A DNA stretch of 64,000 bases from Minisyncoccia bacterium (GCA_038230075.1 JBBRNV010000001.1:114667-178666); one strand, 5' to 3'; shown: positions 43,767 through 62,131, counted from the first letter of the stretch. Notes: generated by a model from the letters alone, not told the origin. Numbers and translations: made by a program.

Positions 43767-45302
43767 ATGAAAACAACGAGCACAGCGAAAGAAAGCCCCG
43801 TAAAGAAGATTGGTTTTTTTATAAAAACACTACGAGAGGATAAAGGAATTACACAGGCAGATTTTGCGAAGGCACTTTCAACTTCACAGAGTGCTGTTGC
43901 TCGAATGGAAAAAGGCGAACAAAACTTTAGTACCGAGCAACTCTCAAAAATAAGTAAGGTGCTTGGACGAAGTTTAATGCGACTTGAAAACTCAACAGAT
44001 GATTTTGAAATTAATGGTGGAAAAAAACTATCAGGAACGATTCAAACTAACTATTCAAAAAACGGCGCGCTCGGGCTTTTTTGCGCCGCACTATTAAACA
44101 AAGGAATCACTACTCTTCATGGAATTCCTCGAATTGAAGAAATTGCTCGTATTGTTGAAATCTTTGAAAGTATCGGTGTAGAAGTTAAGTGGATGGGAAA
44201 AAACACAGTGTGCATAACTCCTCCAAAAGTTTTCTGTCTTGAAAACATGAATCATGGTGCAGCCGCTCGTATTCGATCTGTTCTTATGATGATTGGATCG
44301 CTCACTCACCACATTCCTTCATTTTCAATCCCTCATGCTGGTGGATGCAAAATGGGACAACGAACAATTGCTGCCCATCGATATGCACTTGAAGCACTTG
44401 GCATTAATATTTCAACCAAATCAGACAGATACACTATTAATCGAAAGAAATTTAAACCTGCAGATGTGGTTATGTACGAAGCAAGTGACACCGCAACAGA
44501 GAACGCCATTATTGCAGCTGCACTTATTCCTGGAAAAACCACTCTTCGTTTTACTCCTCCAAATTATCAGGTGCAAGAAGTATGTTTCTTTTTAGAAAAA
44601 TGTGGGGTGAAGATTGAAGGAGTTGGATCAACTACTCTAACAATTCATGGCATCAAAGAAATTGACATGACAATTGAGTACACCAACAGTGAAGATCCTG
44701 TTGAATCAATGATGTTTTTGTCTGCTGGAATTGTGACTGAATCAACACTAACGGTTACTCGATGCCCCATCGAATTTCTTGCTGTTGAACTTTTAAAATT
44801 AGAAAAGATGGGTTTGAAATATACCTCAACAAAAGAATATTTCGCAGAGAATGGAAGAACAAAATTGGTAGACATCACTATTCATCCATCAAAACTGAAA
44901 GCGCCGTTAGACAAAATTCATGCTCTGCCATATCCTGGAATTAATACTGACAACCTTCCCTTTTTTGTTCCTATCGCAACCTTGGCTGTTGGAACAACAC
45001 TTATTCACGACTGGATGTGGGAAAATCGCGCAATCTATTTCACTGAACTTAACCGCCTCGGTGCAAATGTGGTTTTAGCAGACCCTCACCGAGTATTTGT
45101 CCAAGGTCCAACCAAACTTCGAGGATCTCAAATCGTATGCCCTCCAGCGCTTCGTCCTGCCATGATTATCTTAATCGCCATGCTTGCAGCTGAAGGAACC
45201 TCGATTTTGCGAAACGTATATGCTATAAATCGCGGATATGAAGATATTGCAGAACGCCTCAACTCGATTGGAGCAGACATCAGCATCATCAGCGACTTCT
45301 AA
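43767..45302 (+). CDS. murA: XRE-family HTH domain fused to UDP-N-acetylglucosamine 1-carboxyvinyltransferase (MurA)
   Basis: Residues ~15-70 are IKTLREDKGITQADFAKALSTSQSAVARMEKGEQNFSTEQLSKISKVLG, a Cro/C1-type HTH. The remaining ~436 aa are MurA, including the active-site Cys in GGCKMGQR. Confidence 0.85.
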   Translation: MKTTSTAKESPVKKIGFFIKTLREDKGITQADFAKALSTSQSAVARMEKGEQNFSTEQLSKISKVLGRSLMRLENSTDDFEINGGKKLSGTIQTNYSKNGALGLFCAALLNKGITTLHGIPRIEEIARIVEIFESIGVEVKWMGKNTVCITPPKVFCLENMNHGAAARIRSVLMMIGSLTHHIPSFSIPHAGGCKMGQRTIAAHRYALEALGINISTKSDRYTINRKKFKPADVVMYEASDTATENAIIAAALIPGKTTLRFTPPNYQVQEVCFFLEKCGVKIEGVGSTTLTIHGIKEIDMTIEYTNSEDPVESMMFLSAGIVTESTLTVTRCPIEFLAVELLKLEKMGLKYTSTKEYFAENGRTKLVDITIHPSKLKAPLDKIHALPYPGINTDNLPFFVPIATLAVGTTLIHDWMWENRAIYFTELNRLGANVVLADPHRVFVQGPTKLRGSQIVCPPALRPAMIILIAMLAAEGTSILRNVYAINRGYEDIAERLNSIGADISIISDF

Positions 45303-50269: not shown

Positions 50270-50680
50270 TTATTTATTGATCAAAGCATCTCTCTCAACA
50301 ATTGCCTTAGCAAGTGTTGAGTTAGTATTTAAATACTCTATATAGAGTATATGTGATTTATTGATATCGAGGGTTGATTTTGGTGATTGTGGCTCTTCTT
50401 GAAGTGACAACACCTGAAGACTTTGAGCACCTGTTGTTGTTGCCCCATCTTGAGGTCGTACATAGTACACGTGTCGAAGTGTGACCGTGTCACTAAATGG
50501 AAGCCACCATCCCTTTCCAAAATAAACTTGACCGTTATCAATAAAAACAGCTTTCCATGAAGATGCACTTGAAATCAAGCCAACAAAAAACCACAAAATA
50601 AGAACCACAATAGCAATCAAACTGATTCTTGAGATAAGTGGTTTTTTTAAAAAAACAAAGATGTTGTTGATGTATTTCAT
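50270..50680 (-). CDS. Small membrane-anchored protein, unknown function (last gene of the surface locus)
   Basis: N-terminal TM. Co-directional with the giant gene and immediately 3' of it. Confidence 0.45.
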   Translation of the reverse strand: MKYINNIFVFLKKPLISRISLIAIVVLILWFFVGLISSASSWKAVFIDNGQVYFGKGWWLPFSDTVTLRHVYYVRPQDGATTTGAQSLQVLSLQEEPQSPKSTLDINKSHILYIEYLNTNSTLAKAIVERDALINK

Positions 50681-58669: not shown

Positions 58670-59635
58670 TCAGAGAACGTATCGAACGAAGACAAAACTG
58701 AGTATAAAAATAGTCAAAATAAGGAGTAAATATTCGAGCACATTTTGATACACAAATGTCATCAAAAGTGACCACTTCGAAAGAGGGGTTGACTGATAAA
58801 GAAATTTATATTGCATTGTACTTGTAGGAGTGATGATCATTGTTCCAGTTTGTGTACTTCGTAGGCTAGAAGTTGAGTTTCTTAAATTTAAATCGAAAAA
58901 TGACGTGTCAACACCAAATCCATTTTGATCTATAGTATTAAATGTTTTATCTTGACTCGATATTGAGATATTTGAACTAGAAGTAGACGTATCAGTATTT
59001 TGTTTCATAATTTTACTCACAAAAACTGATGCATATGAACCCCAAGAATATTTTCCTGTAGATGGATCTTTTACAAACAATGAGTAAAAGTAGCGAATTC
59101 CATTTTCGACATCAGTATCAAAAAATGTTGTCCCCCTTCCTTCATATACAACAATTCCTTCATCAAGAGGACCTGTAGGGAACCCTGTCGTACTTCGAAG
59201 TATTCGAACAAATGGATTTGGCTGAAGAAATGAAGGTACGAGAGGATACTCATTCAACCTTGGAGGTGTCCACAACAAAAGAACATTGCCGAAAAAGTTA
59301 TATGCATAGAAATCTTTTGCCATGTTTAAACTTTGTCGTATCTGTTCCTCACTTCCTCTTGAAGTTCCTCCTATGGGTGCAGATTGAATAGGTGCTTCAG
59401 GAATTATAGAAGGAGTAGAAGTAGAACTTGTTGCAACAGCTTCGCAATCTGATGGACACGAATCGAATACTTCTCCAGCATCACACATGAGATCGTAATT
59501 ACATTGAACAACATTCAACTGCACATTTATTGAGTTAATATTTCTTGCTTGTGCCGAAACTTGCATTGGTGAATGAAGAAAAAGTAAAAAAAATCCTATT
59601 GTAGTGATTAAAATTGTAGAAAATATTCTACTCAT
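58670..59635 (-). CDS. Secreted protein with C-terminal TM anchor, unknown function
   Basis: Signal peptide, Cys cluster (CNYDLMCDAGEVFDSCPSDCE), Ser/Thr-rich region, C-terminal hydrophobic anchor. Confidence 0.6.
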   Translation of the reverse strand: MSRIFSTILITTIGFFLLFLHSPMQVSAQARNINSINVQLNVVQCNYDLMCDAGEVFDSCPSDCEAVATSSTSTPSIIPEAPIQSAPIGGTSRGSEEQIRQSLNMAKDFYAYNFFGNVLLLWTPPRLNEYPLVPSFLQPNPFVRILRSTTGFPTGPLDEGIVVYEGRGTTFFDTDVENGIRYFYSLFVKDPSTGKYSWGSYASVFVSKIMKQNTDTSTSSSNISISSQDKTFNTIDQNGFGVDTSFFDLNLRNSTSSLRSTQTGTMIITPTSTMQYKFLYQSTPLSKWSLLMTFVYQNVLEYLLLILTIFILSFVFVRYVL

Positions 59636-60390
59636 GGAGCAATTGCAGTTACAATAACTGTTGCCTGATAATTTGCCGCATCCTGAATTTTTGAACTTCC
59701 AACTCCTGCAACAAAACGAACGGTTGTAGTTGCTCCAATAGGATAATTGGCAGCAACAACCGAACTAATCAGTCTATCAGTGGTACTTAATCCATCATAA
59801 CAAGTGTTGGTATTATTTCCTGACCCTGTATTACATGCAGATCCGTTATCTTTATATCTTGAAACGATATCATTTCCTTCGGGTGAAAAACCGAATGTCG
59901 AAGATGCGGCACCAACAGTAAATGCGTAGTCGGGCGAAGCGCCTGTCGGAACATAATCAGCAAAACTAGAATTTGTCGTAGTTGCCTTAAGTGATGGAGA
60001 CGAAGTTGAACGAATATACAACGAATATCCTACTGGATCATTTGTTGAAACATTCCACGAAGCGGTTCCTGATGCTTGGTTTGCTCCAATACCACTAATC
60101 GATGAGAGAGTAAGGTTTGGGGCCACGGAAATTGCAATAAAATAAGTATCGTTCTGCTGATATCCGGCACTAATTGAATAATTGGTACTTGAAGAATCAC
60201 CAGTCGAAAGCTCTCCTAGCGTATCTTCGGTTCCGTAATTTGTACTTGAAGAAATGACTCCTCCTGAGTTTATTGAATCGAAGTTAATACTATAATTTGA
60301 GCTTTGCATTACCTGCGCATACGAAGCGTACATCGTTGAAAGATATACCGTAGCACACATTATACATATTGCTTGGATAAGAAACTTCAT
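59632..60390 (-). CDS. Small secreted beta-rich protein, paralog B (SCPU-pilin-like / WxL-like)
   Basis: Signal peptide, S/T/A/N-rich, an internal Cys pair, an ASWNV motif and the C-terminus ...NYQATVIVTAIAP. Paralogous to 61472..62131. Confidence 0.65.
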   Translation of the reverse strand: MKFLIQAICIMCATVYLSTMYASYAQVMQSSNYSINFDSINSGGVISSSTNYGTEDTLGELSTGDSSSTNYSISAGYQQNDTYFIAISVAPNLTLSSISGIGANQASGTASWNVSTNDPVGYSLYIRSTSSPSLKATTTNSSFADYVPTGASPDYAFTVGAASSTFGFSPEGNDIVSRYKDNGSACNTGSGNNTNTCYDGLSTTDRLISSVVAANYPIGATTTVRFVAGVGSSKIQDAANYQATVIVTAIAP

Positions 60391-60406
60391 TTTTTAATTG
60401 TGTAAA

Positions 60407-61384
60407 TTACTTTCGTCTGATGTCAAAGTTTCTGAAAACGTATCTAAATATAACCAACATGAGAATGATCAGAATAAATATCGCGAGCAAGATTTTCCAT
60501 GGAATAACAACAAAGGTAATTGTTTTTGAATCAATTTCATCTTTATGACCTGGGTTATTATATGCTTTATGTAATTCTAAATGAGCTCGATAAATACCGA
60601 AGAGCCCTGATCCATCAATGTTTACTTGCCGATATCGTTTTGATTGAGGAAGAGAATAGTATGCATCAATAGGAGCACTTGCTACCGTTTTACCAAAAAT
60701 ATTGTTAACGGTTACTTGTCCGTATGGTGCGAGGTGTACATTTCCTGTGTTTGAAAACATTGTTTCAAAGCCGAAAGTTCCTGGTTCGTAAATAAAATGA
60801 TGTGGAGTGATTCTAAAGTCTTCTACCTTTCCTTCTTCTTTTGCTTCTCCGTTAACTCGAATAAAAAGAAGTGAGCCTGCACGGGAAACCGCATGAGTCG
60901 TTGCCCCTTCACTTCCACCCTTCGCTTGCCCTATCTCATTTGAAACAATAATAGAAGTGTAAAAACCACCAGGTGCCGCGTCTGCAGGAACTTTAATCGT
61001 TACGGGAATAGTTATTCTCTCACCAAATTTTAAATTAAATTGAGTAACTTCAGGAATGATACTGTCTCGAATTGAAAGAGGGTTTTTATCTGCTCCCATC
61101 AGTTGAATAGGGTTATCAATTTGATCAGTACCACCAAAGTCTTCAAGGTCAATTTTAAAGGTCGTAGGCTCTGTCACACGGCTTGTGACAGTTATTTCTT
61201 TAGTAACAGTCTCTCCTGGGTTAATAAAGATTTCTTGTCGAGCAGGACCAACCACAAAGTCTTGTAAAGGGTCTACTTTTCCCATATTAAAAATAGTAAC
61301 TGCTTGAGTAAATTGAGGAATCAAAAACGCACCAAGTAGTAATAGAGAAATGCGCCTTGATGCGCCGTAGCCAATTGATTTCAT
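60407..61384 (-). CDS. Secreted Ig/beta-sandwich-like protein with C-terminal TM anchor and basic tail
   Basis: Signal peptide, beta-rich ectodomain, C-terminal TM (ILLAIFILIILMLVIF) plus RYVFRNFDIRRK. The layout recalls the DUF916-type partners of WxL proteins. Confidence 0.65.
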   Translation of the reverse strand: MKSIGYGASRRISLLLLGAFLIPQFTQAVTIFNMGKVDPLQDFVVGPARQEIFINPGETVTKEITVTSRVTEPTTFKIDLEDFGGTDQIDNPIQLMGADKNPLSIRDSIIPEVTQFNLKFGERITIPVTIKVPADAAPGGFYTSIIVSNEIGQAKGGSEGATTHAVSRAGSLLFIRVNGEAKEEGKVEDFRITPHHFIYEPGTFGFETMFSNTGNVHLAPYGQVTVNNIFGKTVASAPIDAYYSLPQSKRYRQVNIDGSGLFGIYRAHLELHKAYNNPGHKDEIDSKTITFVVIPWKILLAIFILIILMLVIFRYVFRNFDIRRK

Positions 61385-61471
61385 ATTGCTTCAATTGTAC
61401 ATGAGTATTATTAATAAAACAAAAGATCTCCTTGTGGAGATCTTTTGTTTTATGCTTGACTAGTAGCTTTT

Positions 61472-62131
61472 TTATTGTGCGATAGCGGTAGCAGTAATTG
61501 TTGCGTTATATGTTCCTGATGGAATATAGATTCCTTTCTGCTCAACTGCGTAACAAACTGTTGCTGTTTCTCCAGCTGTTGTAGTAGTTGCCGTTGATGA
61601 GGCGATTGCTCTATCAGTAGTTTTAAAGTTTTGATATTTAAGAGTCGTACTTGGATCATTTCCGGTACCTCCTGAACACACTGCTCCGGTTCCCCATGTT
61701 GCTGTTGGAACTTTTGTTCCAAAAGCAGAGTATCCAAATACTGCAGTTCCTGCACCTGGATTCCATAATTCTGGAACATCAGTACCTCCTGGTGCATAGT
61801 TTGCAATTGATGACGTTGCGCTATTCATAGCTGGTGTAGAACTTGCCCGAACATAGAGAATGTATCCTCCTCCGGCATTTGTTCGAACTGTCCATGAAGA
61901 TGTTGCAACTGCAGTATTTGCAACCGAGTCAAGATTTCGACTCATTGTTGTATTTGTTGCTGCTGTGATTGTGATGTCTGAAAGCACTGTTAATGTAACA
62001 ACGATAGTGTTAGAAGCGCTTGTTGCTGCTGCAATTGCAGTATCGACCTGAAGAGATTGATATGCAAACGGACTAAGTATTGTTAGTACTAATGCGAAAG
62101 CAACAATTTCATAAAACTTTCTTAAATTCAT
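61472..62131 (-). CDS. Small secreted beta-rich protein, paralog A (SCPU-pilin-like / WxL-like)
   Basis: Signal peptide, an alternating hydrophobic/Thr N-terminal strand (TIVVTLTVLSDITITAAT), an SSWTV motif, a Cys pair and the C-terminus ...TYNATITATAIAQ. Confidence 0.65.
   Translation of the reverse strand: MNLRKFYEIVAFALVLTILSPFAYQSLQVDTAIAAATSASNTIVVTLTVLSDITITAATNTTMSRNLDSVANTAVATSSWTVRTNAGGGYILYVRASSTPAMNSATSSIANYAPGGTDVPELWNPGAGTAVFGYSAFGTKVPTATWGTGAVCSGGTGNDPSTTLKYQNFKTTDRAIASSTATTTTAGETATVCYAVEQKGIYIPSGTYNATITATAIAQ

Follow-up and report, generated by a model that had tools for sequence, protein, structure and literature searches.

The four-gene block and its conservation

The window analysed here is a stretch of 64,000 nucleotides (nt) from a Minisyncoccia bacterium (GCA_038230075.1 JBBRNV010000001.1:114667-178666), with a G+C content of about 38%. 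Within it, four co-directional genes on the minus strand, which we call A, X1, B and X2, lie directly upstream of a giant open reading frame (ORF), and we consider them as parts of a candidate surface fibre. An earlier note on this DNA had described this arrangement, and its coordinates were reproduced exactly (positions in the window; protein lengths in amino acids, aa):

61472..62131, minus strand: gene A, candidate shaft (major) pilin of 219 aa, whose signal peptide is followed by an N-terminal donor-type strand and one immunoglobulin (Ig)-like pilin domain ending at TYNATITATAIAQ
60407..61384, minus strand: gene X1, candidate membrane-anchored PapD-like / WxLIP-like chaperone of 325 aa
59632..60390, minus strand: gene B, candidate tip subunit of 252 aa, a PamT-like paralog of A
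58670..59635, minus strand: gene X2, candidate terminator and membrane anchor of 321 aa
50722..58602, minus strand: giant secreted repeat protein, an ORF of 2626 aa 3' of the four-gene block

The gaps along A-X1-B-X2-giant are 87, 16, -4 and 67 nt, the overlap of B and X2 being ATGA; because successive co-directional genes are so closely spaced, the arrangement is operon-like. All four proteins of the block begin with a signal-peptide-like segment, as had been claimed for A and B. Both X1 and X2 end in a hydrophobic transmembrane (TM) segment, which bears out the description of partners of about 320 aa with a signal peptide and a C-terminal TM anchor.

In a genome scan, B homologs turned up in 106 species-level genomes; 80 loci were kept and then searched with custom hidden Markov models (HMMs). 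The gene order is conserved in relatives: it recurs in about 80 species-level Patescibacteria genomes, far beyond chance. X1 lies directly 5' of B in 73 of 81 loci, an X2-type gene is next after B in 58 of the 71 eligible ones, and an A-type pilin stands 5' of X1 in 45 of 69. Those homologs of A, X1 and B that carry a name belong almost without exception to Patescibacteria, Paceibacterota or Parcubacteria bins, one A homolog being labelled Burkholderiales (P0018), and every lineage-specific name among the 106 genomes is of the Paceibacteria/Parcubacteria type.

Many of the loci numbered L005-L083 belong to third-party assemblies titled 'uncultured Candidatus Saccharibacteria bacterium'. Since independently named relatives are all Paceibacteria/Parcubacteria, these titles may be placeholder taxonomy rather than evidence of Saccharimonadia. 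In about 24 of the 69 eligible loci the gene 5' of X1 encodes a conserved non-pilin protein of 270-640 aa, a second locus architecture. This protein carries an N-terminal motif of the helix-turn-helix (HTH) kind (…ISSSRAAKLTGYVNDYIGQLCRDGKL…GRSWYV), a central TM segment and the C-terminus 'GVITPVFK…DYLYVLVPI' (for example L011:2578-3639, L023:7959-8969, L058:7319-8962 and L061:7234-8949). Elsewhere, a second giant ORF 5' of the block (L020:3-, L075:1-8076, L083:1-) or a second A-type pilin (L004:7246-8800, L022:12166-) suggests local expansion of both gene types.

Folds and homologies of the encoded proteins

The arguments below lean on five segments of the four proteins:

61985..62011, minus strand: NTIVVTLTV, aa 41-49 of A, candidate N-terminal donor strand, with an alternating hydrophobic pattern, preceding the first strand of the fold
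60428..60499, minus strand: aa 296-319 of X1, C-terminal TM helix, helical in the model and aligning with the TM helix of WxLIP
60154..60315, minus strand: aa 26-79 of B, N-terminal module with three S-x-N-Y repeats, the most conserved part of the B family, standing where A has its donor strand
59510..59536, minus strand: NSINVQLNV, aa 34-42 of X2, N-terminal strand of the mature protein, resembling NTIVVTLTV of A
58673..58738, minus strand: aa 300-321 of X2, C-terminal hydrophobic anchor, LEYLLLILTIFILSFVFVRYVL, as read from the sequence

By sequence comparison A and B are true paralogs (BLASTP, 36% identity over 169 aa, E = 7e-22), as proposed earlier. The S-S-W-x-V motif (SSWTV / ASWNV), the C-terminal alternating strands (TYNATITATAIAQ / NYQATVIVTAIAP) and one Cys pair per protein are present and conserved throughout both families. 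Two further features ascribed to both paralogs stand in part only: each protein has its Cys pair, but the first Cys alone matches in position, and the N-terminal alternating strand is found in A (TIVVTLTV), whereas B has the three-fold S-x-N-Y module in its place. No larger paralog of A was found in the block or the window.

A was modelled as an AlphaFold2 monomer from a 59-sequence alignment. The model (pLDDT 92.3) begins with a signal-peptide helix, is unstructured over residues 29-52 and then forms one beta domain, about 165 residues long, that reaches the C-terminus. Its best structural matches are donor-strand pilins: CsuA/B, TLP-1, the FimH pilin domain and the SCPU-type CupE. Foldseek independently ranked CfaB, the PapG pilin domain and FimF at the top, all with weak E-values. 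A has the incomplete Ig fold by which classical chaperone-usher pilins are recognized. The strand NTIVVTLTV lies outside the modelled monomer fold, whose strands begin at residue 53, and all A-position pilins keep it as DxVxVTLxV or, in a second class, as DQFTVSQTV. The layout is that of a classical donor-strand pilin, in which we infer a donor role for NTIVVTLTV.

Among these matches, TLP-1 is itself an N-terminal donor-strand fibre (CryoSeek, PDB 9ikj/9ikk; PMC11494351). It differs from the present case in forming a tubule where protomer n+4 donates the strand (PMC11494351); its nearest relatives, by prediction, are from Flavobacteriales, and neither a chaperone nor an operon context is known for it.

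Sequence searches placed A in no described family. A itself and its 59 family members gave no match in Pfam, NCBIfam or PDB sequences, and none to SCPU, WxL or TasA; SCPU and fimbrial Pfam families matched neither A nor B at E <= 1, nor any of the 59 family members at E <= 0.05. A family-wide Pfam scan of A and B yielded scattered chance matches only, and their profiles found nothing meaningful among PDB sequences. Profile-profile comparison by hhalign of A and B with eight WxL proteins gave a probability of about 1%, the WxL alignment of 8 sequences being too small to exclude a remote relation. The earlier likening of A and B to SCPU (PF05229) and WxL (PF13731) proteins thus finds no support in sequence profiles, and by sequence the locus belongs to neither family, nor to TasA.

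A few structural matches of A point away from pilins of the chaperone-usher kind: the TasA fibre (8aur), a Pyrobaculum bundling pilin (7ueg) and CanX. Together with the TasA homologs reported in Patescibacteria (PMC9245690), they evoke a fibre of the TasA, archaeal bundling-pilus or cannulae type that assembles by itself without a chaperone, X1 and X2 then having unrelated roles. We hold this to be very improbable. The three matches score below the chaperone-usher pilins, Peptidase_M73/TasA (PF12389) has no Pfam match among the 59 family members, and a PapD-like chaperone gene is strictly adjacent and even fused to B in six species.

B has a described relative in the Pam pilus of Candidatus Mycosynbacter amalyticus, a member of the Candidate Phyla Radiation (CPR). 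This donor-strand filament has been imaged; its chaperones are anchored in the membrane, and it has no usher (Troman et al., bioRxiv 10.64898/2026.03.03.709456). According to the same preprint, PamT consists of one truncated Ig-like domain that lacks a donor strand and is assigned to the pilus tip; PamC and PamD are PapD/FimC-like chaperones keeping a C-terminal TM helix; and PamR, the proposed terminator and anchor, is an RbmA-like FnIII protein that has a strand near its N-terminus and ends in a TM helix. The preprint also notes an unexplained conserved 'tail fibre-like protein' near pam operons.

B has a signal peptide, the S-x-N-Y module and a pilin domain as in A, without a donor strand. 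Ten positions are invariant in its family: S30, Y33, D38, G44, S49, G59, E60, S68, Y71 and G76. It matches the NCBIfam model NF058579 (CPR-type pilus protein PamT) with E = 7.4e-13 and 48.5 bits, over profile positions 6-132 of 241; the S-x-N-Y module lies inside the matching stretch of B (residues 7-133). This is the only significant Pfam or NCBIfam match among the five window proteins. The score stays far below the equivalog cutoff of 240 bits, and the match covers no more than the N-terminal half of the profile; B is a distant homolog of PamT and not an equivalog. The model also matches each of the 33 B-family members tested, with E = 3.3e-13 at best, so the homology, though distant, is family-wide; the family counts at least 447 homologs.

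In six species X1 and B are fused in a single ORF of 520-556 aa (L024:9137-10726, L025:9146-10732, L030:8120-9682, L036:3871-5526, L051:9053-10723 and L081:8566-10161). These ORFs run from the chaperone domains through the TM helix, a short basic loop and the B signal peptide with its AxA site to B itself. Such fusions imply co-translational coupling, probably with signal peptidase cleavage, and they support a direct functional coupling of X1 and B.

The model of X1 (pLDDT 91.6) contains two beta-sandwich domains (aa 30-177 and 185-293) and the C-terminal TM helix, after a signal peptide; as modelled, X1 is a two-domain PapD-like chaperone fold. The window protein itself has no significant Pfam or NCBIfam match, and neither DUF916 nor DUF3324 was detected in the window proteins. 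At family level, 18 of 59 members match Pfam PF06030 (WxLIP_PGBD, formerly DUF916), and the family profile reaches the solved EfmWxLIP1 with E = 7.6e-7. For comparison we took WxL loci from real Enterococcus and Listeria replicons: hhalign of the X1 family against six of their WxLIPs gave 98.1% probability and E = 1.2e-13 over 252 columns, TM helix included. On the strength of these matches and of the model, X1 is a membrane-anchored WxLIP homolog with PapD-type architecture. It combines the marks of a WxL-cluster protein (DUF916, DUF3324 and a C-terminal TM helix) with those of PamC and PamD (a PapD/FimC-like chaperone keeping its C-terminal TM helix), and provides a sequence-level bridge between CPR and Firmicutes.

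The WxLIP proteins of Firmicute WxL clusters (PDB 9i1y, 9i25) consist of DUF916/PF06030, DUF3324 and a TM helix, and AlphaFold predicts that a WxLIP strand completes the beta-sandwich of its partner (Hassan et al. 2023, PMC10599100). This is donor-strand complementation, although it is not so named by the authors, who read WxLIP as a peptidoglycan and host binder and not as a chaperone (PMC10599100).

Between X1 and X2 no similarity is detectable, and their architectures differ. This means that the locus did not result from doubling of one gene couple, contrary to the earlier picture of two paralogs alternating with two similar anchored proteins. Likewise, the DUF916-like arrangement proposed for both holds strongly for X1 and does not extend to X2, an FnIII anchor.

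In X2 a signal peptide precedes the N-terminal strand, after which a 4-Cys module, an FnIII-type domain and a low-complexity linker lead to the C-terminal TM segment; its hydrophobic C-terminus lacks an LPXTG motif. A HMMER scan of 1.8 billion representatives identified the X2 core (about residues 140-205) as a repeat-type domain with many copies in large proteins too, while full-length relatives measure 300-540 aa. X2 relatives, including the fourth genes of syntenic loci, match Pfam fn3 and Pur_ac_phosph_N, orthologs having two FnIII domains with fn3 matches; nothing meaningful was found among PDB sequences. What X2 and its relatives share is the alternating strand at the mature N-terminus, a CN..C..SCPxDC module and a C-terminal hydrophobic segment, a hydrophobic C-terminus being present in 41 of 68 X2-position proteins. 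With its FnIII domain, N-terminal strand and TM helix, X2 may be likened to PamR as the latter is described.

The N-terminal strands of A and X2 covary. The best 9-mer score averages 21.7 for pairs from one locus and 16.8 for pairs from different loci; none of 10000 permutations attained the within-locus value. Strand classes agree in 36 of 38 loci, with 4 in 10000 in a within-class permutation. The window has the pair NTIVVTLTV/NSINVQLNV, and L080 the pair IEDQFIVSQ/AEDQFIVSQ. A co-evolving strand in two otherwise unrelated proteins is expected if both fit one acceptor groove.

A class of long X2-position proteins (650-1017 aa) keeps the pilin-like N-terminal strand and FnIII but has no C-terminal TM segment. 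It ends in a conserved 'FYFLVPPGxYYxTVEEKLPDGSY…' domain, and usually no giant ORF follows 3' (for example L038:6927-, L043:3090-, L053:10751-, L058:10756-, L059:10740-, L061:10770- and L065:10764-).

A candidate usher-less donor-strand pilus

CPR/Patescibacteria are tiny, mostly uncultured epibionts that need to attach to host cells. They are known to lack an outer membrane, and type IV pili were their only well-known appendages before the Pam preprint of 2026.

We now propose that A, X1, B and X2 form a donor-strand pilus of a monoderm-type CPR (Paceibacteria-like) bacterium, assembled with the help of a chaperone but without an usher, a reading that we consider likely while leaving substantial room for doubt. 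The earlier idea of a non-covalent surface-fibre module in a lineage without an outer membrane persists here as the best explanation of the folds of A and X1, the A/B paralogy, the X1-WxLIP and B-PamT homologies, synteny, strand covariation and the X1-B fusions. All four proteins would be exported by Sec. X1, tethered in the cytoplasmic membrane by its C-terminal helix, would capture the incomplete Ig-like domains of A and B. B, which has an acceptor domain and the S-x-N-Y module but no donor strand, would initiate the fibre and end up at its distal tip, as proposed for PamT. Copies of A would then join singly, each putting its NTIVVTLTV into the groove of the preceding subunit. Finally, X2, with its strand NSINVQLNV and no acceptor domain, would cap the last A and, by means of its FnIII stalk and TM anchor, fasten the fibre in the membrane, the role proposed for PamR.

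Several points weigh against this pilus. Polymerisation, subunit order and chaperone activity are predictions, and the fold of X2 is read from its sequence. The test of A/X2 covariation cannot fully remove phylogenetic non-independence. B falls far short of the PamT cutoff (48.5 against 240 bits), and an NCBIfam scan of diverse X1 and X2 relatives matched no Pam model. A is single-domain, PamA and PamB two-domain. The closest sequence relatives of X1, the WxLIPs, belong to systems without a reported filament. Lastly, about one third of related loci have no A-type pilin upstream of X1; there, B and X2 may form a complex alone.

These last points bring up a static complex of the WxL-cluster kind, in which X1 would permanently hold a single A and/or B by strand complementation, X2 would be an independent FnIII surface protein and no polymer would form. 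WxLIPs are the only significant non-CPR sequence relatives of X1 and have been proposed to bind and stabilise WxL proteins one-to-one (PMC10599100). The layout, too (small secreted proteins, a WxLIP, a giant surface protein), parallels Firmicute loci such as L090, and the existence of loci without A gives this alternative its greatest bearing on the third or so that have the HTH-TM protein in the place of A. Yet A and B lack WxL profile similarity and the dual Trp-x-Leu motif. The fold neighbours of A are polymerising pilins, and A unites a donor-type strand with an acceptor domain, which is what self-polymerisation requires. B has a homolog in the tip subunit of a filament that has been imaged, and a static 1:1 chaperone complex leaves the X2 N-terminus mimicking the A strand unexplained. 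Altogether, we think such a complex, the main rival of the pilus, unlikely.

The comparison with Firmicute WxL clusters is instructive beyond this alternative. Alike are the small secreted beta-proteins, the WxLIP-type protein, the large surface protein and the small anchored protein. On the other hand, A and B have no WxL domain: each has a single W-x-V and no C-terminal Trp, against the two or more PF13731 proteins with dual Trp-x-Leu of a WxL cluster, and the likeness is confined to the C-terminal 'G-T-Y-x-(A/S)-T-(I/L)-T' strand. The anchor is a TM/FnIII protein instead of an LPXTG protein, genes for which are present in the Firmicute loci L085, L087, L089 and L090, and no filament has been reported for WxL systems.

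Two Firmicute loci, L090:4035-10338 (Enterococcus sp. plasmid pCREc1) and L087:1548-5891 (Listeria), mirror the layout of the CPR block with a small WxL protein, a WxLIP, a giant surface protein of the BspA/LRR or internalin kind and a small LPXTG-anchored protein. By eye, the WxL segments 'YVQVTDxRGSxxGWxLSV' and 'YxTTLTWxL' resemble 'WNVxTNNxxGYxLxV' and 'YxATITVTAIxL' of A and B, a likeness that is not significant in hhalign.

With the archaic chaperone-usher systems (Csu of Acinetobacter, CupE of Pseudomonas; SCPU PF05229), the block shares an N-terminal alternating donor-type strand, a C-terminal strand that ends the protein and a chaperone with the two-domain PapD/CsuC fold. It differs from them in belonging to a lineage known to lack an outer membrane, in its anchored, not soluble, chaperone, in the lack of an SCPU Pfam match and in an anchor/terminator that is an FnIII membrane protein and not a pilin-like one. 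No usher-family Pfam match occurs in the five window proteins, and the conserved block holds a pilin, a chaperone, a tip subunit, an anchor and sometimes a giant; having no usher, the locus is not a classical chaperone-usher system.

The Pam pilus is the nearest parallel to the proposed fibre. Both systems are restricted to CPR/Patescibacteria (P0018 aside), and both combine Sec-exported parts, Ig-like pilins of donor-strand design and a TM-helix chaperone with the absence of an usher, known here from genes and models. B is a sequence homolog of the single-domain, donor-strand-less PamT, X2 may be compared by its sequence layout with PamR, an FnIII-type TM-anchored protein with an extra N-terminal strand, and a large protein is encoded nearby (fibre-like in Pam, the giant ORF here). 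In contrast to Pam, the shaft pilin consists of a single domain (about 180 aa when mature) and has its strand at the very N-terminal end, an arrangement known from classical chaperone-usher pilins. A single chaperone takes the place of the two in Pam; X2 combines a Cys module with a single FnIII domain; no sequence link from X1 or X2 to Pam proteins could be found; and the lineage is of the Paceibacteria type, not Saccharimonadia or Microgenomatia.

The earlier note had called the module undescribed and seen it as feeding the giant protein. The first claim has to be narrowed in view of the related Pam pilus and of the PamT model weakly matched by B. What is new here is a single-domain pilin with an N-terminal strand, a lone candidate chaperone, and an occurrence in lineages of the Paceibacteria type, which the preprint did not bring out. 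In the literature we found no donor strands in Patescibacteria beyond that preprint, and no prior link of WxL to chaperone-usher or donor-strand systems.

As to the second claim, the block could be an accessory module in which A, B, X1 and X2 fold, display or tether the 2626-aa protein, a role compatible with the other readings. The genes are co-oriented with short gaps, a giant ORF (>= 1000 aa) stands 3' of the block in 27 of the 44 loci with enough downstream sequence, and the 'tail fibre-like protein' near pam operons offers a parallel. The giant protein has a signal peptide and long internal repeats with no obvious anchor of its own. We nevertheless judge this role to be improbable, though less so than that of a self-assembling fibre. 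The other 17 of the 44 loci have no giant ORF; searches of the giants with pilin or chaperone HMMs gave nothing below E = 0.1 (no A-, B- or X1-like segment), nor is there a donor-strand-like element; and APQTINYQGKLY, the mature N-terminus of the giant protein, does not resemble the A/X2 strand. Searches of Pfam, NCBIfam, PHROGs and PDB sequences gave no match to guide a mechanism, and with PHROGs blank the label 'tail fibre-like' is unconfirmed for this protein. The association of giant and block is frequent but not obligate, and a mechanism cannot be proposed from these data; of the feeding idea, the frequent synteny is what stands.

Wider implications and neighbouring features

X1 is homologous to WxLIP, B to PamT, and A has the archaic Csu/SCPU fold; these links tie three systems together. 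WxL clusters, Pam pili and the present module might accordingly be branches of one ancient family of usher-less donor-strand systems with membrane-anchored chaperones, sister to the Gram-negative chaperone-usher pathway. We put this forward tentatively and give it somewhat less than an even chance. If it is true, WxLIP would be a pilus-type chaperone instead of a peptidoglycan/host binder, and WxL proteins would be pilin-like subunits. The X1-WxLIP homology suggests that WxL virulence and colonisation clusters (Enterococcus, Listeria, Lactobacillus) may share a logic of chaperone and strand complementation, which would alter how their proteins are studied. Should the pilus reading hold, usher-less donor-strand pili in a simpler single-domain form would reach at least 106 species-level genomes, counted by B homolog. 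The minimal four-part list of pilin, anchored chaperone, tip and strand-mimicking anchor would then bear on how donor-strand exchange is driven and ended without an usher.

One further element lies within the block:

61416..61451, minus strand: perfect RNA hairpin of 16-18 bp directly after the stop codon of gene A, from sequence and fold energy

Its folding energy is -23.9 kcal/mol (z = -9.4), and none of 200 shuffles was equally stable. It could be an attenuator or an mRNA stabiliser favouring an excess of pilin. The matching junction of related loci shows no enrichment of hairpins, so we regard it as a local feature of uncertain meaning. A scan for promoter and terminator consensus sequences gave counts at or below shuffled expectation and missed this hairpin.

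A class-V aminotransferase gene lies 5' of the block; 3' are a 136-aa membrane ORF, ClpB and tRNA genes. The 136-aa ORF (50270-50680, minus strand), 41 nt past the giant gene, encodes a small domain and, at its N-terminus, a TM segment; PHROGs gave no match for it. Farther off, at 43767-45302 on the plus strand, an EPSP-synthase-family (MurA-like) enzyme carries an N-terminal HTH_3 DNA-binding domain, an unusual combination that also occurs in another Patescibacteria genome (L001:4516-6075).

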